Shown: in pieces, positions 6,295 to 43,456 of the stretch
Layout of the letters: each line of letters opens with the position of its first letter
How positions within the stretch are numbered: position 1 is the first letter of the stretch
Assembly: GCA_964385825.1 (NCBI GenBank)
Contig: CAYLPX010000002.1
Span: 1,281 to 65,280 of the forward strand
Length of the DNA stretch: 64,000 nt
Source: an uncultured Candidatus Saccharibacteria bacterium
Lineage (GTDB): Bacteria > Patescibacteriota > Minisyncoccia > Phycocordibacterales > JAKFXT01
Direction: 5' to 3'
Made by a program: the position numbers and the translations under genes
Notes under the pieces: model-generated
What the model was told of the DNA's origin: nothing
Databases searched by the model: none
What the model saw: the letters and a program-made list of their open reading frames with translations, nothing else

Positions 6295-6475
6295 TGTGTA
6301 ATGTAGCTAACTACCACCAAGGATTTCTTGATGATTTTACTTGTTTTTTGGTAACCCAGCCACTAAAGAAACGGTGGTTTCTCTCGCGCTCCAGCATTAC
6401 CTCCAACAAAAAAGGCACTAAGTGCTTAGAGAGGATATTAGCAAGGATTATAGGGGGTGTCAAACAGGAGAACTT

Positions 6476-6501
6476 GTAGGGACAAACCGTAGGGACAAAC
6501 C
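6476..6501 (+). repeat. perfect tandem direct repeat gtagggacaaacc x2
   Basis: Read directly from the sequence: gtagggacaaacc gtagggacaaacc. It lies about 80 bp upstream of the island ORF at 6579. Confidence 0.9.
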
Positions 6502-6578
6502 TAAGAAATCTAGCTATTTTACAAGTGGTTTGCTAGAGTGCAGCCAGCTGTAAACATCCACCAATCGAAGGAGGTCGC

Positions 6579-7004
6579 ATGATCTACCAAGTAGGCAGTC
6601 ACACCTTCACTCCCGGTCTCTACATGAAACTGAAGACGGGTGAGCTTTTTCTCTTCCACCACGCCGTCCAAAACAGCCGCAAGGGCACCGGGGAGCCAGG
6701 TTCGACCAAGATGGTATATGTCTACTCGAACATTGCCGACGGGGACTTCATCTACCGACATCTTCCCTACTCACAGCTTCTTGCACCCAGCATCGCATTG
6801 CAGCTCTGCGACATGTGCAACCCAATGGACAAAGCGCTTGTAAGGATAGTGTACGATGCCTTCATGCAAAATACTGTTTTCGCGCGAAATTTTGCAAAGC
6901 CATTCGCCGAGTGGGCGAGCATGCACCGTATCCCGCTTTCGGTAAGCACCTCGATTGCAGGGATTCTGCATTTCGACACCCACCCCATGTTTCATGGGGT
7001 CTGA
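6579..7004 (+). CDS. hypothetical protein on GC-rich island, antisense to the ribosomal operon
   Basis: 141 aa ORF preceded by AGGAGG (gaaggaggtcgcATG). It has high GC and high GC3, unlike its neighbours. A GC-rich terminator follows. Confidence 0.5.
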   Translation: MIYQVGSHTFTPGLYMKLKTGELFLFHHAVQNSRKGTGEPGSTKMVYVYSNIADGDFIYRHLPYSQLLAPSIALQLCDMCNPMDKALVRIVYDAFMQNTVFARNFAKPFAEWASMHRIPLSVSTSIAGILHFDTHPMFHGV

Positions 7005-7010
7005 CTCATC

Positions 7011-7051
7011 CCCCCCCCCGCCGCGGAGTACCGCGGCGGGGACTATTTTTT
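7011..7051 (+). terminator. GC-rich hairpin plus T-run after the island ORF
   Basis: cccccccccgccgcggagtaccgcggcggggac followed by tatttttta. Confidence 0.65.
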
Positions 7052-7060
7052 ATATTCCTA

Positions 7061-7103
7061 AAACAAAAACTCCTCCCTAGTTTAGGGAGGAGTTTTTGTT
7101 TTG
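7061..7103. terminator. bidirectional intrinsic terminator immediately downstream of rplE
   Basis: aaaacaaaaactcctccctagtttagggaggagtttttgtttt: a perfect 10 bp stem with A/T runs on both sides. It falls between rplE and rpsN, which are normally co-transcribed. Confidence 0.75.
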
Positions 7104-7104
7104 C

Positions 7105-8927: not shown

Positions 8928-9353
8928 TTACGCAAGTTCGCGAGAAATCACCTTACACTTTACGGGAAGCTTAGCTCCAGCCTTGCGAAGTGCTTCACGA
9001 GCCTCTTTCTCTGGTACCCCATCAATCTCAAAAATGATACGTCCTGGGCGAGTTTCAAACTGGTATCCCTGAAGGTCTCCCTTACCCTTTCCCATACCTA
9101 CTTCAGCTGGCTTACCTGTATATGGGAAATCAGGGAAAATACGGATCCACATCTTACCAGTCTTACCAGCAGCACGTGATACTACCTTACGAGCTGCTTC
9201 AATCTGGTTAGAGCGAATACGAGCAGCTGTGGTAGCTTTGAGCCCAAAGGATCCAAAAGAAAGAGTCACGCCGCGAGTGTCCGCAGTCATACGCTTTGGG
9301 TTACGACGAGTTGTTTGTCGCTTTCGGTATTTAACTTTCTTTGGGACTAACAT
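8928..9353 (-). CDS. rplP: 50S ribosomal protein L16
   Basis: 141 aa; MLVPKKVKYRK..., the L16 family N-terminus. Confidence 0.9.
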   Translation of the reverse strand: MLVPKKVKYRKRQTTRRNPKRMTADTRGVTLSFGSFGLKATTAARIRSNQIEAARKVVSRAAGKTGKMWIRIFPDFPYTGKPAEVGMGKGKGDLQGYQFETRPGRIIFEIDGVPEKEAREALRKAGAKLPVKCKVISRELA

Positions 9354-9380
9354 AGTAGTGTAATTAAAAAATATCTAAAA

Positions 9381-10055
9381 TTATGAACGACGTTTCTTGT
9401 CCTCGGCGAACACCTCACCTTTGTAAATCCAAACCTTAATACCAAGGTCTCCATAAGGAAGGTGTGCACGCTCGCGAGCAAAGTCAATATCAGCACGGAA
9501 CGTCTGAAGTGGGATACGGCCACGCTTCAACTGCTCAGAGCGAGCAATATCTGTTCCACCAAGGCGTCCTCCGATTAAGATACGCACTCCCTTCACATCG
9601 CGGTTGGCTACTACCTTATCAATAGTCTGCTTGAGTACACGGCGGTATGGAAGACGCTTTTCAAGCCCTTCAACAATCATGAAAGCAACAATGTGTGCAT
9701 CAGATTCAGGTGAGCGAACTTCCTCTATATCCATCTTGAACTCTTTAGTCTTAGCTAGATTGTTCTTTTCAATAAACTTAGTGATGTCTTTGCGGAGCTT
9801 CTCTGATCCCTCACCGGAGCGACCGATAATCATACCAGGGCGTGAAGTCTTAATGATAAGACGCATCGTGTCTGCTCCACGCTCAATACCAACATCACTC
9901 ACAAAGAAACCACGAAGGCGTGTCGCTAAATACTTGCGAAGGAGTGTATCACTCTTAAGAAAATGCTTGTACGTGTCACCCACTCCAAACCAGCGGCTTT
10001 TCCAGTCGCGGATGATTCCAAGTCTATGTGCGTATGGGTGAACGGTGTGTGACAT
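9381..10055 (-). CDS. rpsC: 30S ribosomal protein S3
   Basis: 224 aa; KH domain; GIIRDWKSRWF motif. Confidence 0.9.
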   Translation of the reverse strand: MSHTVHPYAHRLGIIRDWKSRWFGVGDTYKHFLKSDTLLRKYLATRLRGFFVSDVGIERGADTMRLIIKTSRPGMIIGRSGEGSEKLRKDITKFIEKNNLAKTKEFKMDIEEVRSPESDAHIVAFMIVEGLEKRLPYRRVLKQTIDKVVANRDVKGVRILIGGRLGGTDIARSEQLKRGRIPLQTFRADIDFARERAHLPYGDLGIKVWIYKGEVFAEDKKRRS

Positions 10056-10512: not shown

Positions 10513-10860
10513 CTACTTCTTCTTAGCATCGGCTGTTGATGCAGTAGCGGCTTTAGCGGCAGCGATTTCGCTCTCCTTACGCTTCTGCTCTAGTTCCTTC
10601 TGCATCTTACCACCATGGCGAGTAAACTTCTTAGTTGGTGAAAACTCACCAAGGCGATGTCCCACCATGTCTTCAGTCACGAGTACAGCGATATGATCCT
10701 TACCGTTATGCACCCCGAAAGAAAAACCTACCATTTCAGGAGAAATCTGACTGCTGCGGTACCACGTCTTAATGACCCCAGTTTCCTGTGGCTTTTTGCC
10801 CTCAATTTTCTTGAGTAGCTTTGGTTCAACGTATGGACCTTTTTTAAGTGATCGTGACAT
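10513..10860 (-). CDS. rpsS: 30S ribosomal protein S19 with C-terminal extension
   Basis: [19 protein letters not shown]... FTRHGGKM; S19 family. Confidence 0.9.
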
Positions 10861-11027
10861 GAAAAATGTAAGTTTTTGGTTGGCTCAGCTTCTTTTTTGG
10901 CAATTAAAAAAACCTTATCGCTAAGGTCTCCAAGGCGCCAACCATGGAAGCTATAGGAGTAGACTATCAAACCCATACAAATTGTCAAACCCCCGCCATC
11001 CCCCCACCAAAAGTAGTAAATCATAAA

Positions 11028-11055
11028 TTGACAAAAACTATAAATGTGTTAGATT
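11028..11055 (+). promoter_or_regulatory. sigma70-like promoter candidate for the island ORF at 11126
   Basis: TTGACA (11028-11033), a 16 nt spacer, then TAGATT (11050-11055). A hairpin plus T-run follows at 11061-11087 (ccggttcacttaggtgaacgttttttg), and the SD and ATG follow that. Confidence 0.4.
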
Positions 11056-11125
11056 AAAAGCCGGTTCACTTAGGTGAACGTTTTTTGTTCCTCACAACGC
11101 CCCCCTAGGGGGAGAAAGGTAGCAC

Positions 11126-11695
11126 ATGCTTAGCAGGAAAAAATACCCCACCCTCGTGGGACTCATGGCCACCATTCCGGCTGTGAAAGTGGAAGTGGAG
11201 CAACTTCTCGCGGAGAAGTCCACTCCGAGCGGCGCCGCCGACAGGGCCGTGCACCAAATCGGTGCGGTGTTGGCCAAGCACGGCATGCTGAACGGCTTCG
11301 CGAAGTTGGCAGCAACCCCTCCGACCGCGCAAAGTACGGGTTCGGACGCTACCAGCTTCGGCTTCCCGATCGGCAACGATCGGCATGAACTCACCCGCCT
11401 GCGATTGCTTGCGGCCAAGGCTGAGGGCAACTACGATGAAGTGCGCGCCGAGGCCATGGCCACGCTTACGAACTGGGGAGGCAAGAGCCCCAGACGAGTC
11501 ACGGCCGGCCTCATCAGCCAAATCGTGGAAGGCACAGGGCGGCCCCGCTTCATTGCGGAACTGCTTGCCGCCAGCCCCACCGAACAGCATGGCGAGTTGC
11601 TGAAGCATGTCGCAGGCTACTACAGCAGAATCGGCCTGCGGGCTTCGCCCAAAAAGCTCCTCGCCGAGGCGCGGCAGGCAGGCTACCAGATCTAA
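11126..11695 (+). CDS. hypothetical protein on GC-rich island, antisense to the ribosomal operon
   Basis: 189 aa ORF with very high GC3 (gcc, ggc, ctg codons). SD ggggagaaaggtagcacATG. A strong terminator follows. The product is Ala/Leu-rich and helical. Confidence 0.5.
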   Translation: MLSRKKYPTLVGLMATIPAVKVEVEQLLAEKSTPSGAADRAVHQIGAVLAKHGMLNGFAKLAATPPTAQSTGSDATSFGFPIGNDRHELTRLRLLAAKAEGNYDEVRAEAMATLTNWGGKSPRRVTAGLISQIVEGTGRPRFIAELLAASPTEQHGELLKHVAGYYSRIGLRASPKKLLAEARQAGYQI

Positions 11696-11726
11696 GCTCT
11701 AGGCCGAGTAGGCCATGTTCTTCTCC

Positions 11727-11765
11727 GTCGGGAACCCTTCGTGGTTCCCGACTTTTTTATTTTTA
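11727..11765 (+). terminator. intrinsic terminator of the island ORF
   Basis: gtcgggaacccttcgtggttcccgac followed by ttttttattttt. Confidence 0.75.
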
Positions 11766-11897
11766 GAAAAATATTTGTAACCTTTTTTAAAATCTTCTAG
11801 TTTCATTAATACAAATTGATACTTGATGATTGCTAAGCCGAAAGTAGTTTAGCAGTCGCCAAGTGGAAATTTGGAAGTTTCCGTTTTGAATGCAAAT

Positions 11898-11925
11898 CCC
11901 CGCCGGCGCATGCGCGCCGGCGGGG
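11898..11925. repeat. perfect 28 bp GC palindrome
   Basis: ccccgccggcgcatgcgcgccggcgggg, sitting at the 3' end of the minus-strand island ORF. Confidence 0.85.
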
Positions 11926-11941
11926 TGTTCCGATGGCACCG

Positions 11942-12373
11942 CTACGAATGAGGTGCCGAACTGGTGTTGAAGAGTTCGGGGTCCGGCCAATCAAGCTTCG
12001 CCCCATCCAAAAGCGGCAAGGCCGCCTGGAAAAGATGGGCGATGTTGAAACACGCCGACTGGACGTCTTTTCCTGCCGTGTCGTCCTGCGCATCCTTCTG
12101 CAGAACGCGTATGAACATCTCCCCCACACGTATCCGACAGCGCCCCTCCTCACCTCGGCTCAAAACGCCTTGCCGAAAGGAAGCGGTGAGGATCTGGAGC
12201 AGTGTCTTGATTTCGTCACGATTCGGCCACGCTGAAGACTGAGCCCCAACCGATACCCTCTTCGTGAGTTGCTCAAGACGGTCCAGAATGAGCTCAACCA
12301 GAGTGTCCGCGACGCTCTTGATCGGCCGCTGCACGTACGCAACAGCCTCATTTATTTCAGGGTTTTCGTGCAC
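11942..12373 (-). CDS. hypothetical protein on GC-rich island
   Basis: 143 aa ORF with a GTG start preceded by GGAGGTG. High GC. The overlapping alternative ORFs on both strands make the coding call uncertain. Confidence 0.4.
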   Translation of the reverse strand: MHENPEINEAVAYVQRPIKSVADTLVELILDRLEQLTKRVSVGAQSSAWPNRDEIKTLLQILTASFRQGVLSRGEEGRCRIRVGEMFIRVLQKDAQDDTAGKDVQSACFNIAHLFQAALPLLDGAKLDWPDPELFNTSSAPHS

Positions 12374-12435
12374 GGGGCACCTCCAAGAAAAAAGGGTTAT
12401 ACAGCTCGCTTGAGCTTATACTCCACTAGTAAAAA

Positions 12436-12476
12436 GTCAAACGCCGCGGGCCTCCCGCGGCGTTTGACTTTTTGTT
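12436..12476. terminator. bidirectional intrinsic terminator immediately downstream of rplB
   Basis: gtcaaacgccgcgggcctcccgcggcgtttgac, flanked by aaaaa and tttttgttt. Confidence 0.75.
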
Positions 12477-12490
12477 TAATTTTTTCCGAA

Positions 12491-13333
12491 TTATCGCTTC
12501 TTTCCAACCTTGCGGCGAGAAACGATAAGGCGATTTGAGTATTTCTTTGGAGTTCGTGTCTTCTGACCCTTTCCAGTTGGGCGTCCCCACTTACTCTTAG
12601 CGCGGCGGAGTCCTCTTCCCTGACGTCCTTCACCTCCTCCATGTGGGTGATCAACTGGGTTCATAGCAGATCCGCGAACTGTTGGGCGAATACCCTTCCA
12701 GCGATTACGTCCTGCTTTACCAATCTTCTCGAGATGGTGTTCGTCATTAGATACTTCTCCAACTGATGCCCATGCAGTGTTGTGTACCTTACGAACTTCA
12801 GTTGATGGCATCTTAAGAAGGGTGTAGTCACCATCTTGCGCGATAACCTCAGCTGAGTTTCCGGCAGAGCGGCAAAGCTTAGCTCCACCTTCTGGCTTAA
12901 TTTCAATATTATAAACAAGCGTACCTACTGGCATAGCACCGAGCGGAAGACGGTTAGCAGCTGTAATAGGAGCCTTCTCTGCTGTTACAATCTCCTGTCC
13001 TACTACCACACTCTTTGGAGCCAACAGGTAACGCTTGTCACCATCCTTGTACCCAACAAGTGCAATAAAGCCTGTGCGGTTTGGGTCGTACTCAATAGTC
13101 AAAACCTTTCCCGGAACATTAAGTTTGTTCATCTTGAAATCAATAAGACGATACTGACGCTTGTGTCCTCCTCCCTTATGGCGAGTGGTGATGCGCCCAG
13201 CATTGTTGCGTCCTGATCCGCGGCGAAAACCCGTAAGGAGTGCCTTGTGCGGCTTATCCCCTGAAAGGAGATCACGATATGGAATCGTGGTCATGTTACG
13301 GCGTGATGGACTTGTTGGTCGGTACGTTTTCAT
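12491..13333 (-). CDS. rplB: 50S ribosomal protein L2
   Basis: 280 aa. The L2 signature (GGGEGRQGRG ... HPHGGGEG) is evident. Confidence 0.9.
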   Translation of the reverse strand: MKTYRPTSPSRRNMTTIPYRDLLSGDKPHKALLTGFRRGSGRNNAGRITTRHKGGGHKRQYRLIDFKMNKLNVPGKVLTIEYDPNRTGFIALVGYKDGDKRYLLAPKSVVVGQEIVTAEKAPITAANRLPLGAMPVGTLVYNIEIKPEGGAKLCRSAGNSAEVIAQDGDYTLLKMPSTEVRKVHNTAWASVGEVSNDEHHLEKIGKAGRNRWKGIRPTVRGSAMNPVDHPHGGGEGRQGRGLRRAKSKWGRPTGKGQKTRTPKKYSNRLIVSRRKVGKKR

Positions 13334-14968: not shown

Positions 14969-15135
14969 TCTATAAAAAATGCGACCCCATAAAACTATAG
15001 TGTCGCCAGTAGAAAGGTCTCAAATACTAACCGAGGCCTTTTTGTCTGGCGGAACTTTCTCTCGGAATCCGAAAGTGTTCACAGAACGCAATAGAAGGCA
15101 TATTACACGACCCTAGAAAAAATGCAAATGTTAAA

Positions 15136-15158
15136 GCCGAGGCGCAGCGCGCCTCGGC
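15136..15158. repeat. GC-rich palindromic hairpin
   Basis: gccgaggcgcagcgcgcctcggc followed by cttttgggg. Confidence 0.7.
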
Positions 15159-15176
15159 CTTTTGGGGAACACCCCG

Positions 15177-15491
15177 CTACACACGAGGATTCTTGGGAAG
15201 CTGCGCGGAAAAGACGATAGGGGCTCCGCGTCCTCGACGAGGGGGCTTTTGGGAAACTCCAGCCCCCTCCTTTTTCGCAGCATTCTTCTGTGCCCGGGCC
15301 GCCCTTTCCGCCAACACCTTTGTCACATGTTGGGGTGCCAACACTTGCCCGGTTGCACTTTTCCATTTCTGATCTATCGGACTTAACCGATAGACCGTTC
15401 CATAATGCACGAGTTCATCTTTACGCATAAAAGCCCTCTCTAAACAATTCTTAAGAAACCTTATCACAACTATCTTTTTCACAAAAATCAA
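15177..15491 (-). CDS. possible small basic protein on GC-rich island (uncertain)
   Basis: 104 aa ORF. Its C-terminal half is GC-rich and basic (RAQKNAAKKEGAGVSQKPPRRGRG). The overlapping alternative frame means it could be noncoding. Confidence 0.25.
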   Translation of the reverse strand: MIFVKKIVVIRFLKNCLERAFMRKDELVHYGTVYRLSPIDQKWKSATGQVLAPQHVTKVLAERAARAQKNAAKKEGAGVSQKPPRRGRGAPIVFSAQLPKNPRV

Positions 15492-15570
15492 TTGACGTAT
15501 ATGAAGGATGAGGAGTACGCTTATTATTGGGTTAGTTCACCACACTGAAGTACCAACCAGGAGAAGAGCC

Positions 15571-15927
15571 ATGCCAGGAAGAGTGGTTGATACCTATAGT
15601 TCCCGCAGCATAGATGAGCTGCTTGCCATGATGACAGCAGACGTGGTCAATCGACCAAGGCCTACTGCTTCCCCCCTTTTTCAAGCTATTGAACACCGCG
15701 GACTACATCGCGGTGAAAAAGGAAAACCCGACAAGGTAACCCTGGCAGGGATCCTGAAGTACGCCAGGGCCCAACTGGAACAGGAAACTGAGACCAAGAT
15801 ACTTCTCGCCTTCGCCAAGCTCATCAATTCAATCCTAGACGACGTTGCCGATTTCGATGATGGGCTGCCGCGGCAATCCTTCGAGAAGGCTGTTGCGAAA
15901 ATTCCGCCACACTTGGCACAGAACTGA
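15571..15927 (+). CDS. hypothetical protein on GC-rich island, antisense to the ribosomal operon
   Basis: ATG at 15571 preceded by AGGAGA (ccaggagaagagccATG). It is the internal start of the tracked ORF 15508..15927. High GC; terminators follow. Confidence 0.45.
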   Translation: MPGRVVDTYSSRSIDELLAMMTADVVNRPRPTASPLFQAIEHRGLHRGEKGKPDKVTLAGILKYARAQLEQETETKILLAFAKLINSILDDVADFDDGLPRQSFEKAVAKIPPHLAQN

Positions 15928-15939
15928 TCTGTGCCAGCC

Positions 15940-15970
15940 CCCCCGCCCTAAGGCGGGGGTCGTTTTGTGC
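15940..15970 (+). terminator. GC hairpin plus T-run after the island ORF
   Basis: cccccgccctaaggcggggg followed by tcgttttgtg. Confidence 0.6.
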
Positions 15971-15986
15971 CACGAACTTCAAAAAA

Positions 15987-16029
15987 CAAAACCCCTCCCT
16001 CGCGTCGCGAGGGAGGGGTTTTGTTTTTT
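15987..16029. terminator. bidirectional intrinsic terminator immediately downstream of rpsJ
   Basis: aaaacccctccctcgcgtcgcgagggaggggttttgtttttt. Confidence 0.75.
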
Positions 16030-16042
16030 GATAATGCTTTAT

Positions 16043-36060: not shown

Positions 36061-36097
36061 GCAAACTGCCGGCACGCGAAGCGTGCCGGCAGTTTGC
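36061..36097. terminator. bidirectional terminator after rpmB
   Basis: gcaaactgccggcacgcgaagcgtgccggcagtttgc followed by ttttcccc. Confidence 0.7.
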
Positions 36098-36173
36098 TTT
36101 TCCCCTTGACTCATTTTAAAACCGGCGTAAAGTTAATAGTGTCCCATTTCGGACTACACTCAAGGAGAGCATC

Positions 36174-36593
36174 ATGCAAAAGCATCGCCCGTCCCTGTGG
36201 AAATCGTTCTTCGCCAACCCCGCCAATGCGTTCGTCGGTATCGTGTCCCTGTTCGTCGGCATCCTCGCCTGGCTCGCCGAGCCCGATGCGCTGGCCGCGG
36301 CCTACACGACGTTCGACTTGCGTCCCTGGCTCGATCCGGTCCACGTCTTCGGCATGCTGTCGGCGTTTGGCCTCTTCCTGGTCGGCCTCGGTATTGCGTT
36401 CATCGTTGCGAAAACCGTCGCCCGGCACTACTTCAGCCACCGCCGGCCCGCGCTTCGCCAACTGTTGACCTTCGCCGTCGCCCAGACCAAAACTGCCTGG
36501 AAAAACCTGATCGCCATCGGCCACGCTACGGCCGCCATGATCGGCGCCGCGCTGCCGGCCTTCCGCCACCGCTCGGCTCCCCTGCTGAGCTGA
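36174..36593 (+). CDS. hypothetical small membrane protein on GC-rich island
   Basis: 139 aa. SD caaggagagcatcATG. GC3 is above 80%. Two or three predicted TM helices (FVGIVSLFVGILAWL; VFGMLSAFGLFLVGLGIAFIVA). Terminators follow. Confidence 0.55.
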   Translation: MQKHRPSLWKSFFANPANAFVGIVSLFVGILAWLAEPDALAAAYTTFDLRPWLDPVHVFGMLSAFGLFLVGLGIAFIVAKTVARHYFSHRRPALRQLLTFAVAQTKTAWKNLIAIGHATAAMIGAALPAFRHRSAPLLS

Positions 36594-36615
36594 CCGGTCG
36601 GCGTACTACAGTCCC

Positions 36616-36673
36616 GGCGCAACTGCGAGAGCTAGTTGCGCCAAAACCCCGCTTCGGCGGGGTTTTTTATTTT
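36616..36673 (+). terminator. tandem hairpins ending in a canonical intrinsic terminator
   Basis: ggcgcaactgcgagagctagttgcgcc, then aaaaccccgcttcggcggggttttttatttt. The T-run overlaps the stop codon of the convergent comEC-MBL gene. Confidence 0.8.
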
Positions 36674-37548
36674 ACCGAAACCTTACTACCATCAGAATCT
36701 ATTTCTATTCTCCCCAAGTTATCAGTGCGGAGAGTTTCAATATGAAGTGCATTAAACGTAGCAAGTGTTTCTTTATGTGGATGCCCATACCTATTATCCT
36801 TCCCCACCGATATCACCGCTATACTGGGGTGCACCGTTTGTACATACGTAGGATCACTCGAGGTGTGAGACCCATGATGCCCAGCTTTGAGCACGTCACT
36901 TTCTAAACCGGTTCCATCTAGCTGTGTTAGATGTTGCTCAATGTCTCTCGGTGCATCACCGCTAAATATAAAGTGGGTAGAGCCATACGTGAGACGCGCG
37001 ACAATTGAAGCTTCATTACTTTCTACATATGTCACATCTTTATCCGGATAGAGAATGTCTAGTGCTACTCCATCTTCCTCATCAAGTACCAGTCTCATCC
37101 CGCGTTTTGCAATAACTCTTTGATTCCCCAACTTTACTGCTTCAGTATCTAACCTCTTAAATGCCTGCGTATCTTTAGTTCTATTCCCCGACTCAAGAAA
37201 CATGCCTACTTTATAGCGTGACAATACTTCAGGTAACCCTCCCACATGATCTGCATCAGGGTGAGTTGCTATAACCACATCAATATCATGATCAAGTGGC
37301 GAAAGTACTGCTCCGAGTTCCGTGAGCACTTTATTATCTGTAGGACCTCCATCAATCAATACTTGATTTCCATTCGGTGCTTCAATAAGTGTGGCGTCTC
37401 CCTGTCCAATATTAAGATAAAAAACTTTCAAAGTAGTTTTTCTTGTTTGAGGGGAAAAAGCCTCTCGCCAAACAAAAACATTGCTGAACAATAAGATAAA
37501 TACTACCCCTGGCAATATATAATTTCGCACACTTCGCAGTTTATCCAT
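36667..37548 (-). CDS. ComEC-like MBL-fold metallo-hydrolase domain protein (stand-alone ComEC C-terminal domain)
   Basis: 293 aa. An N-terminal TM is followed by a metallo-beta-lactamase fold (HPDADHVGG; GHHGSHTSS). Confidence 0.7.
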   Translation of the reverse strand: MDKLRSVRNYILPGVVFILLFSNVFVWREAFSPQTRKTTLKVFYLNIGQGDATLIEAPNGNQVLIDGGPTDNKVLTELGAVLSPLDHDIDVVIATHPDADHVGGLPEVLSRYKVGMFLESGNRTKDTQAFKRLDTEAVKLGNQRVIAKRGMRLVLDEEDGVALDILYPDKDVTYVESNEASIVARLTYGSTHFIFSGDAPRDIEQHLTQLDGTGLESDVLKAGHHGSHTSSDPTYVQTVHPSIAVISVGKDNRYGHPHKETLATFNALHIETLRTDNLGRIEIDSDGSKVSVK

Positions 37549-38213: not shown

Positions 38214-38267
38214 ATAAGGTTAACTTGTTTTTAGTATCATCCGATCAACTATTGTGAGGAGTTCGGC

Positions 38268-38483
38268 ATGCGTTCCGCTCAAAATGAACAAAATGTCCGG
38301 GAGTTCGCTTTCGGATGCTCCCCGCCGGCAGTCAACAAGCCCGTACCACGAATGACCTTGCGGGAGATGGCGCAGAACGCCCGCATCGACAAGGTGAACG
38401 AGGCATGCCTTGGTGTCCTGCGCAATCTTCGGTCACGGGCCAAAGACAAAGGCGGCGCTTTCCCGGGAGTTCCGGGGTTCTGA
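38268..38483 (+). CDS. hypothetical small protein on GC-rich island
   Basis: 71 aa ORF; SD gtgaggagttcggcATG; about 58% GC; a terminator follows. Confidence 0.35.
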   Translation: MRSAQNEQNVREFAFGCSPPAVNKPVPRMTLREMAQNARIDKVNEACLGVLRNLRSRAKDKGGAFPGVPGF

Positions 38484-38494
38484 AAAATCCCGCA

Positions 38495-40021
38495 TTACAC
38501 GCCGGCAATTGCCGGCGTGTTTTTCTTTTGGAGTTTCCATAGGAAAATTCCAATACTTACATAGGAGAGGAACATGACCCAAGCTGGAAATTGCGGCACC
38601 GCAAAAGATGCAAAAGATAAGTTGCCAAATCTTTCAGCAATTAGTATTTCATAGTGAAGGAGCCAGTAGGTGACATATGCGAAGGGAGTTGCAATAGCAG
38701 TACTTATAAGAGCACATACTCCTGTAATAAATCCAAGAAGCATAGTGAGTGGGATGAGTGGCAAAACCAAAAGATTGGCAAGGAGAGCTACCACTGAAAA
38801 AGTCCCGATGCTGTAGAGAATAAATGGCAATACAAATAGCTGCGTTGAAAGTGTAGCTACTACTATCTCCTGCAGGCCAAACTTTCTCGGCACCACACGT
38901 AGATACCGCTCAAACAATGGTGAAACATAAATAAGCCCCACTGTTGAGAGAAATGATAATTGAAAAGAAAGATCAAATACTAAAATTTTGGGATTAATGA
39001 ACACCATAAGTACTCCTGCCAAAATAAGTGCTCGCGTGATGTCATAGTCTCGCCGAATAAATGTAGCGAGAAGTGCGAGTATTGCCATAACTGATGCGCG
39101 TACCACCGTTGCCGAACCTCCCGTCATAATAGCGAAAAGTAAAATCCCCACCACCCCGAAAAATATTCGTTTGCGAATAGCAAGAAACGAAAACAGAAAC
39201 ATGAATGCCGTTGCCACAATCGTGATGTTGTAACCCGAAAGCACAATGATGTGAACGAGCCCCGCACTGCGAAAACTATTTTGCAAATCTTTTGAAAGGG
39301 ATTGATTGCCACCAAGGAGTATCCCACCAAGAAATGAACTTTCGGGGGTTGTTATAACTCTATTAAGTCCACTTAAAAATTTCTGCTTAAGTAGAAAAAG
39401 ATTTCTCTTTAAGCTATTGCCCCCACCCTCCCCCACAACGGTAATACCGGGAAAGGTCATTTCATATAATATTCCTGACTTTGCTAAATAGGCTTCGTAG
39501 TTAAATATTCTCCCGTTTGATGTCTCGAAATTCTGTGGTTTCTTAAGAGTACCTACAATTGTTACTTCCTCGCCATAGTTATAGAGCGTCGGGGGAAGTG
39601 TGGTTATAAGTACTTTTTCTTTTACTGGATATGTTACTCCGCGATACTCCAATGTAGTAACTAAAACAGTGAGTCTTGTTGTTTTCTCACGATAGTCTGA
39701 CTCTTCAGTAATGAGTCCGTGAAATGCCGCTCTCGTACCTAAAGCCACTGCCATGCTATCTACCTGCGAAGTGTCATACTCAAATCGCAGTATTCCAAGG
39801 ACTGTCCCAAAAAGAAAAACACTCACTAGAAACGAGTGAGTGTTTTTCTTTTTAAGTATGAGACCGAGACCAAAGATTGCAAAAGCCAGAAGCAAAAGGC
39901 TATAAAGTATATACTCTGGGACATCATAGAGTGACCGAATAAAAATTCCGACTAAGAAACTCCCGAGTATGGAAAAAATAAGTCGATTCGTGCTCACAAA
40001 AATTATGTAGTTGTATCCCAC
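38495..40021 (-). CDS. comEC: competence protein ComEC (DUF4131 plus competence membrane domain; no MBL domain)
   Basis: 508 aa polytopic membrane protein with the ComEC/Rec2 architecture but no C-terminal lactamase domain. Confidence 0.75.
   Translation of the reverse strand: MGYNYIIFVSTNRLIFSILGSFLVGIFIRSLYDVPEYILYSLLLLAFAIFGLGLILKKKNTHSFLVSVFLFGTVLGILRFEYDTSQVDSMAVALGTRAAFHGLITEESDYREKTTRLTVLVTTLEYRGVTYPVKEKVLITTLPPTLYNYGEEVTIVGTLKKPQNFETSNGRIFNYEAYLAKSGILYEMTFPGITVVGEGGGNSLKRNLFLLKQKFLSGLNRVITTPESSFLGGILLGGNQSLSKDLQNSFRSAGLVHIIVLSGYNITIVATAFMFLFSFLAIRKRIFFGVVGILLFAIMTGGSATVVRASVMAILALLATFIRRDYDITRALILAGVLMVFINPKILVFDLSFQLSFLSTVGLIYVSPLFERYLRVVPRKFGLQEIVVATLSTQLFVLPFILYSIGTFSVVALLANLLVLPLIPLTMLLGFITGVCALISTAIATPFAYVTYWLLHYEILIAERFGNLSFASFAVPQFPAWVMFLSYVSIGIFLWKLQKKNTPAIAGV
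38497..38529 (+). terminator. GC palindrome plus T-run; the same sequence encodes the last 8 codons of comEC on the other strand
   Basis: acacgccggcaattgccggcgtgt followed by ttttctttt. Confidence 0.7.
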
Positions 40022-43198: not shown

Positions 43199-43456
43199 AA
43201 CAAAAACAGCCTGCACTACCCCGTGAGGTTAAGTGCAGGCCGGGCTCCAATCGCAGATTCCTACTAAAAGCGTGTGGTATTTCAACGTCGGCTCCACCCA
43301 TCCCGGAAGCAGGGTTTCAAAGCCTCCCACATATCCTACACCCTCTTTTTTCACAATCTTTGACCACTGCAAGGAGTCGAACCTTGCACCATGTGCGGTA
43401 CCGTAGTGTTGTTACGAGCCAGAAGGAGTATACCCCCTCAACTTTAAAAAGTAAAA

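Follow-up and report, generated by a model that had tools for sequence, protein, structure and literature searches.

How did a GC-rich segment come to lie between two genes of a ribosomal-protein operon, and does it encode a protein? We addressed this question for the interval between rpsS and rplB in a 64000-nucleotide stretch of the metagenomic contig CAYLPX010000002.1 (the whole stretch is called the window hereafter), and in particular for a 608-bp cassette containing ORF143, an open reading frame (ORF) of 143 codons on the operon strand. Upon retrieval of related sequences with uL2, the host fell among metagenome-assembled genomes of the Paceibacteria/Parcubacteria type of the candidate phyla radiation (CPR). 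An earlier note on this DNA, which made no strong claim, had pointed out the segment and had left its coding status open. On balance, we consider it somewhat probable that the ORF143 cassette represents an orphan gene, monocistronic and confined to this lineage, which was probably acquired by horizontal transfer and lies in a gap of the ribosomal operon that is bounded by terminators and permissive to inserts.

The minus strand between positions 9381 and 14968 carries the S10 operon in the canonical order rplC, rplD, rplW, rplB, rpsS, rplV and rpsC. With rplB ending at 12491 and rpsS starting at 10860, the operon is interrupted by 1630 bp, and this break holds two convergent GC-rich ORFs, ORF189 on the plus strand and ORF143 on the strand of the operon. 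The GC-rich segment reported between rpsS and rplB was recovered as a core of 490 bp (11852–12341) in which 200-nt windows exceed 58% GC; the GC content of this core is 0.586 compared with 0.444 for the window overall, and that of ORF143 itself is 57%. The minus-strand, GTG-initiated ORF of the note was present as described, and its GGAGGTG motif sits four nucleotides (CCCC) ahead of the GTG. Read along the operon strand, the cassette consists of the rplB terminator hairpin, the GGAGGTG leader, the GTG, the 143 codons and a 12-bp G:C hairpin that would end the transcript. The hairpin placed by the note at the 5′ end of the segment, as the terminator of rplB, indeed combines a G:C-rich stem and a loop of 3 nt with UUUUU tails on both strands, as expected for an intrinsic terminator, and a terminator of different sequence occupies the corresponding place after rplB in the nearest species, L011 (CAZIPS010000006.1). 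The leader between this hairpin and ORF143 showed no special folding (z-score 0.0).

At the other end of the cassette, what had been described as a 28-bp perfect palindrome has perfectly complementary arms of 12 nt each (CCCCGCCGGCGC and GCGCCGGCGGGG), but the central four bases are not self-complementary, and the element is a 12+4+12 hairpin rather than a palindrome running through its centre. It folds at −31.7 kcal/mol (z −3.2), is unique in the window and is terminator-like on the minus strand only, where its tail passes no more than a lenient scan (5 T in 8). The Shine–Dalgarno motif, ORF143 and this 3′ hairpin are all on the operon strand. The hairpin is likely to be the 3′ end or terminator of the putative ORF143 transcript, an orientation that the earlier note had missed.

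The segment is not an artefact of assembly. Ten contigs from ENA/Logan and four from JGI, originating from different runs, have the same junctions at 99.7–100% identity, and an assembly chimera was ruled out because these independent contigs agree. No single-nucleotide polymorphism was found within the cassette across the 14 contigs, and ORF143 was identical in all of them.

Analysis of codon periodicity, the check that the note had proposed, favoured coding in the frame of ORF143. The three-base periodicity gave a chi² of 34.1 compared with 6.0±3.4 in shuffled sequences, none of 5000 shuffles being as high; it was significant in both halves of the ORF, whereas the adjacent non-coding stretches gave chi² values of ~5, i.e. 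no signal. The codon-position profile was gene-like, with G at 0.36 and A at 0.31 in the first and second positions respectively (G1 and A2), G at 0.17 in the second position (G2) and a GC content at third positions (GC3) of 0.66, and under the host codon model the ORF143 frame scored best. The several overlapping open frames seen earlier do exist (100 and 92 aa on the plus strand, 106 and 63 aa on the minus strand) and are at shuffle expectation: because ORFs of ~100 aa arise in 45% of dinucleotide shuffles, they are expected noise. The plus-strand ORFs had poorer G1 and A2 values than the ORF143 frame, and the mirror antisense frame holds a stop and lacks a Shine–Dalgarno motif or a terminator in its orientation. 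We conclude that the ORF143 frame has, at some time in its history, coded for protein.

Next, the cassette was compared with the corresponding locus of L011, whose proteins are 94% (uL2), 96–98% (uS19, global compared with local alignment) and 99% (EF-Tu) identical at the amino-acid level, with a synonymous divergence (dS) of 0.6–1.5. The DNA of the window aligned with that of L011 at 80–88% throughout, except for the insert-borne ORFs; where the window has the 608-bp ORF143 cassette, L011 has ~70 unrelated bp. Between the first GC-rich island, that of ORF189, and the ORF143 segment lie ~130 bp of AT-rich DNA (11753–11895, GC 0.23–0.36), and the host-like character ascribed to this spacer was borne out by its conservation in L011. 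The indel that comprises the ORF143 cassette is therefore distinct from the ORF189 island. In the core of the spacer, 78 of 82 positions are kept, although the synonymous sites of the flanking genes stand at a dS of 0.6–1.5. The spacer also contains a hairpin (ACUUGGCGACUGCUAAAC…GGCUUAGCAAUCAUCAAGU) in which a U-A pair of one species is replaced by a compensatory A-U pair in the other, with no match in Rfam. Judged from these sequences, the conserved spacer may encode a small RNA or act as a regulatory element. Searches of metagenomes for further close relatives gave no hit with a 21-mer of the conserved spacer and one truncated L011-like contig in a uL2 scan.

The rplB–rpsS spacer is a clade-wide insertion hotspot. 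Among 35 loci with a uL2 identity of 60% or more to the host, the spacer had a median length of 506 bp, and it measured at least 400 bp in 21 loci and at least 1 kb in 14, with a maximum of 6.4 kb; among 99 loci of other bacteria the median was 16 bp and 0/99 reached 400 bp. The gaps of the relatives hold differing cargo, namely dgkA, a pilin-like ORF and other ORFs. Several relatives have dgkA at this place, in the orientation of the operon (the rplB–rpsS gaps of L014, L018, L031, L033 and L034 were examined); the L014 copy matched PF01219 with an E value of 2e-32 on scanning, and the copies of the other relatives were 50–65% identical with it by BLASTP. The gap of L031 has an additional ORF that we take, by eye, to be pilin-like, and that of L014 contains 6.4 kb of additional genes. 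Because dgkA and other genes are found there in relatives, the gap takes in native genes besides orphan cargo.

ORF143 had no match in Pfam, PHROGs, PADLOC or NCBIfam, nor among PDB sequences, phages and plasmids (tblastn and blastn) or IMG/VR. A search of 5.8 billion clusters returned the protein itself only, and a filter-free phmmer search of 1.84 billion representatives returned the protein itself plus two tandem-repeat proteins, which BLASTP showed to be spurious. By these searches ORF143 is, as far as its sequence tells, a strict orphan. A single-sequence AlphaFold2 (AF2) model gave a four-helix bundle with helices at residues 5–43, 52–69, 75–96 and 99–123, a predicted local distance difference test score (pLDDT) of 69.7 and a predicted template modelling score (pTM) of 0.61. 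In size and in the predicted up-down four-helix bundle, ORF143 resembles the Avd and 23S-rRNA intervening-sequence (IVS) proteins, ROP and the copper-storage protein Csp (template modelling scores of 0.5–0.65 in Foldseek). Unlike these, it has no Pfam match to any of the families; it lacks the Cys-rich copper sites of Csp, and neither a retroelement nor an rRNA intervening sequence forms its context.

The translation signals of the cassette also differ from those of its host. When the 57 ORFs of at least 110 aa in the window were scored for GGAG, GAGG or AGGA within 20 nt upstream, such a Shine–Dalgarno motif preceded 3/52 host ORFs compared with 5/5 ORFs of the GC-rich islands (Fisher test, ~1e-5). 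Leaders of the ribosomal-protein genes are AT-rich, and GC3 is 0.66–0.75 in the island ORFs compared with ~0.40 in six flanking ribosomal-protein genes. The Shine–Dalgarno contrast together with this difference in GC3 marks the cassettes as apparently foreign, both compositionally and functionally. The host evidently does not use Shine–Dalgarno initiation, to judge by the leaders in the window; an Rfam scan found no 16S rRNA within the 64 kb. In Parcubacteria, an anti-Shine–Dalgarno motif was found in just 48% (PMC9297842). Thus the context now extends beyond the earlier note to an orphan gene, a clade-wide hotspot and Shine–Dalgarno signals that seem foreign to the host. The features of the locus are collected in Table 1.

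Table 1. Features in and around the rplB–rpsS gap, with positions counted from the first nucleotide of the window
Feature	Position	Strand	Remarks
ORF143 cassette, whole	11883..12490	-	608 bp; indel relative to L011
ORF143	11942..12373	-	143 aa, GTG start; periodicity; predicted all-alpha four-helix bundle; orphan
ORF143 leader	12374..12430	-	57 nt; Shine–Dalgarno-like GGAGGTG at 12378-12384; weak -10-like hexamers TATAAG and TATAAC
rplB terminator hairpin	12431..12473		20-bp stem, 3-nt loop; A-run and T-run flanks; directly after the rplB stop; -35.2 kcal/mol, z -7.2
3′ hairpin	11898..11925	-	inverted repeat of 12 G:C pairs with a 4-nt loop; 16 nt downstream of the ORF143 stop; tail AUUUGCAUU
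Conserved AT-rich spacer (ancestral host DNA)	11774..11882		88% identity over 111 bp to L011; core 11801-11882, 78/82 (L011 8914-8995)
rplB (uL2, 280 aa)	12491..13333	-	upstream flank; Pfam Ribosomal_L2_N/C on the identical L001 gene; 94% identity to L011
rpsS (uS19)	10513..10860	-	downstream flank of the insert
ORF189 (first island, 63% GC)	11126..11695	+	convergent orphan gene; promoter-like site 11028-11055, terminator 11727-11752
Shine–Dalgarno motifs of island ORFs			ORF143 GGAGGTG; ORF189 GGGGGAGAAAGG; ORF141 AAGGAGG; ORF at 36174-36593 AAGGAGAG; ORF139 (internal ATG) CCAGGAGAAG

ORF143 is not the only GC-rich insert of this genome. ORF189, the neighbour in the same gap, has a counterpart in L011, ORF188 (9135–9701), at the same site and on the same strand, with 36% amino-acid identity and no similarity at the DNA level. 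In this pair, it is the blocks of the promoter, leader and terminator that are conserved; both species have kept the frame open at matching length, with a non-synonymous divergence (dN) of 0.72, a saturated dS of ~1.8 and a dN/dS of roughly 0.4. Searches with the single sequence and with a two-sequence profile found only the copies of the two species. Both copies have a GC3 of 0.69–0.75 while the GC3 of the genomes is ~0.40. Because both keep this value, the high GC has not drifted to host composition since the species split, and either the coding cores have been repeatedly replaced or GC has been held by selection. The super-operon is interrupted twice more in the same genome, between rpsJ and rplC (14969–16042) and between rplE and rpsN (6295–7104). 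Each of these gaps has a bidirectional terminator at its start and orphan ORFs inside, ORF139 with ORF104/83 in the former and ORF141 in the latter. L011 shares the promoter (TTGACG), the leader motif GAGGAGTACGCT and the terminator CCCCCGCCC…GGCGGG of the rpsJ–rplC gap, and the ORFs at the position of ORF139 have 118 and 116 codons in the window and L011 respectively, with 24% identity, at which homology is unproven. No paralogy was found among the insert ORFs of the window.

Taken together, these results are best accommodated, in our view, by acquisition of the cassette from a GC-rich donor that uses Shine–Dalgarno sequences, which would have taken place after the split from L011, rather than by loss in L011. 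Transcripts of ORF143 would then start at a weak promoter belonging to the cassette or arrive from rplB past its terminator, and their translation in the host would yield an all-alpha protein, small, soluble and cytoplasmic, that probably forms a four-helix bundle. The insert can persist because the ribosomal genes on either side of it already form transcription units of their own, with a terminator after rplB and, upstream of rpsS, a TTGACA-16-TAnnnT element that is conserved in L011.

A number of observations weigh against this reading. ORF189 is equally GC-rich, yet has a homologue at the same site of L011 at a dS of ~1, and high GC is no proof of recent transfer; in addition, no usable outgroup was found by which a gain here can be told apart from a loss in L011. 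Length alone is weak evidence (P≈0.066), since 6.6% of dinucleotide shuffles contain an ORF of 143 aa or more. Composition does not exclude the mirror antisense frame (+,0) either, which has similar GC contents at the three codon positions and ties with ORF143 under a codon model trained on ORF189/188, the codon-usage likelihood of which did not separate the two frames. Because there is no polymorphism in the cassette among copies, which are all identical, and there are no homologues, dN/dS is not computable. A promoter scan found no minus-strand site and no consensus promoter in the ORF143 leader, and the U-tract of the 3′ hairpin is weak. Translation of ORF143 in the host is doubtful: its GTG behind a GC-rich leader may be poorly translated, because the host evidently lacks Shine–Dalgarno initiation. 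The structure model is weak, as AF2 was confident in only one of five models, and Foldseek matched this model to generic helical bundles only, none significantly (best E values of 0.047 for PDB and 0.029 for BFVD).

Some of these points lend limited credence to the possibility that the cassette is dead cargo, that is, foreign GC-rich DNA which was coding in its donor and is here untranslated or unselected, a neutral passenger awaiting decay. Past coding in the donor would explain the periodicity, the Shine–Dalgarno motif and the terminator, and a lack of expression in the present host would account for initiation signals that do not match and for the missing promoter: the host genes have AT-rich leaders without Shine–Dalgarno motifs, as fits the low frequency of the anti-Shine–Dalgarno motif in Parcubacteria (PMC9297842), whereas ORF143 starts with GTG behind a GC-rich leader, and the cassette follows a strong terminator and has no consensus promoter. 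The absence of homologues, the absence of the cassette from the sister species and the lack of polymorphism that could show constraint are also consistent with a passenger. Against this, ORF143 is intact across the whole periodic region, and in samples from several studies the cassette is fixed, without any difference in sequence. The neighbouring island genes share its foreign-looking signals, and the ORF189 frame has been kept at a dS of ~1 with a dN/dS of roughly 0.4; such cassettes can therefore be maintained in the genus.

The same neighbour may be turned into an argument for a native, fast-evolving gene, an old resident of the operon gaps like ORF189 and ORF139 that was deleted in the L011 lineage. 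ORF189/ORF188 (36% identity) and ORF139 and the 116-aa ORF of L011 (24%) share their sites, each pair has retained its promoter, leader and terminator blocks together with a high GC in both species, and divergence at such a rate would soon hide homologues, which would explain the orphan status. We nevertheless regard this as unlikely, given that L011 has no trace of the cassette but only the 70 unrelated bp, that even the full phmmer search of the 1.84 billion representatives found no relative, and that the GC and Shine–Dalgarno signatures are unlike those of the host. It is very improbable indeed that the segment is a non-coding structured element, or that the true gene is an overlapping plus-strand ORF of 100 or 92 aa. 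The full 606-nt transcript folds with a z of −5.5 and the mirror frame ties under one codon model, as described above. The low z of the transcript, however, is due to the two terminal hairpins; ORF143 alone has a z of only −2.0, the same as ORF189 (−1.9), and a special RNA structure in its body was dropped as a candidate. No covariance model of Rfam matched, three-base periodicity is unexpected in a structural RNA, and the plus-strand ORFs are of shuffle length, without a Shine–Dalgarno motif or a terminator in their orientation and with the poorer G1 and A2 values.

We compared the cassette with known classes of elements. The attC site of an integron cassette is an imperfect inverted repeat of 57–141 bp with GTTRRRY core sites at the 3′ end of the cassette, with intI or attI nearby. 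Here the 3′ repeat is a 28-bp hairpin with perfect arms, no GTTRRRY occurs in 11885–11945 on either strand and the flanks are ribosomal-protein genes (the search for intI was not extended to the rest of the window), and an integron cassette was rejected. An insertion sequence or miniature inverted-repeat transposable element was rejected as well, with no inverted or direct repeats bounding 11883–12490 and no transposase domain; the sole boundary-like pair (10977–10993 and 12459–12475, 17 nt, 82%) overlaps both the −35 element of rpsS and the terminator of rplB, and is absent from L011. A toxin–antitoxin or known anti-phage defence gene was dismissed on the lack of PADLOC, Pfam and NCBIfam hits for ORF143 or ORF189, which are convergent and have their own terminators. 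A phage or plasmid gene was dismissed on the empty PHROGs, tblastn, blastn and IMG/VR searches, the BFVD folds not being significant. No repeat pair of at least 25 nt was found in 10800–12600 that would indicate the target of a diversity-generating retroelement, and the Avd-like fold resemblance was not significant. For a known RNA family, Rfam gave only sub-threshold, terminator-like hits, and both of these readings were rejected as well.

The closest likeness is to ORFan genomic islets, with which the cassette shares atypical GC and GC3, its own translation and termination signals, presence or absence between sister species, a lack of homologues and a spacer with different cargo in different relatives. 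Unlike usual ORFan islets, it lies inside the S10 operon, with no integrase, tRNA gene or flanking repeats at the site. The cassette is a fairly ordinary, compositionally atypical ORFan islet, of which the site and the pattern are less familiar. Small insertions have been described mostly between operons of Gammaproteobacteria and Bacilli, with genes of known function (e.g. tusDCB, bfd-bfr and ilv-leu), and such an insertion was described as the first step of operon disconnection (Brandis 2021, PMC8046335). In contrast with those cases, the insertions here interrupt the S10 and spc operons themselves, in three gaps of one CPR genome and with orphan cargo. Both hairpins of the cassette are like intrinsic terminators in their G:C-rich stems and short loops, and that at 12431–12473 has a U-run on each strand; unlike typical terminators, the tail of the predicted hairpin at 11898–11925 (AUUUGCAUU) is a weak U-tract.

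A wider reading, which we think improbable at present, is that ORF143 belongs to an unrecognised class of GC-rich, Shine–Dalgarno-led, very fast-evolving micro-cassettes in the ribosomal super-operon gaps of Paceibacteria that do not use Shine–Dalgarno initiation. Were such a class real, a GC3 of ~0.7 would be kept across speciation at a dS of ~1, together with the promoters, leaders and terminators, and the coding cores would be repeatedly swapped between conserved flanks by recombination, or else an ‘orthogonal’, Shine–Dalgarno-dependent mode of expression would be under selection. Such an orthogonal mode would be GC-rich and tied to the transcription of ribosome genes, and might serve, for example, host-interaction or conflict proteins.

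It is unusual for the S10 and spc operons to be interrupted by insertions, and this context is more useful than a single orphan accessory gene. In one CPR clade, these otherwise near-invariant operons are split into terminator-bounded units, and foreign or fast-evolving genes settle in the gaps between them. The hotspot, the GC-rich, Shine–Dalgarno-led cargo in a host that does not use such initiation, and the stronger conservation of regulatory flanks than of coding cores together deserve a systematic look. The Shine–Dalgarno contrast is a potential flag for foreign or atypical genes in such genomes. The cassette may help to trace donors of DNA, which could include the hosts of these episymbionts, and it raises the question of whether bacteria without Shine–Dalgarno initiation can translate Shine–Dalgarno-led genes.

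Further GC-rich DNA was seen elsewhere in the window. A fourth island of ~60% GC (36094–36745) lies between rpmB and a ComEC/metallo-beta-lactamase-like gene and contains an ORF of 139 aa (36174–36593) that is Shine–Dalgarno-led, with a GC of 0.65, strong periodicity and no Pfam match; smaller patches were found at 15102–15372 and 38254–38538. In addition, the minus strand at 43266–43347 gave an isolated 82-nt match to positions 2130–2211 of bacterial 23S rRNA, which we take to be the L1-stalk region, with 53.8 bits compared with a gathering score of 50. The match lies in a spacer flanked by a 372-aa ORF, presumably pgk, and a 159-aa ORF that we take to be HIT-like, both read without a family-library scan. 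Judged by its sequence, it may represent an L1-binding mimic or else the remnant of a leader.

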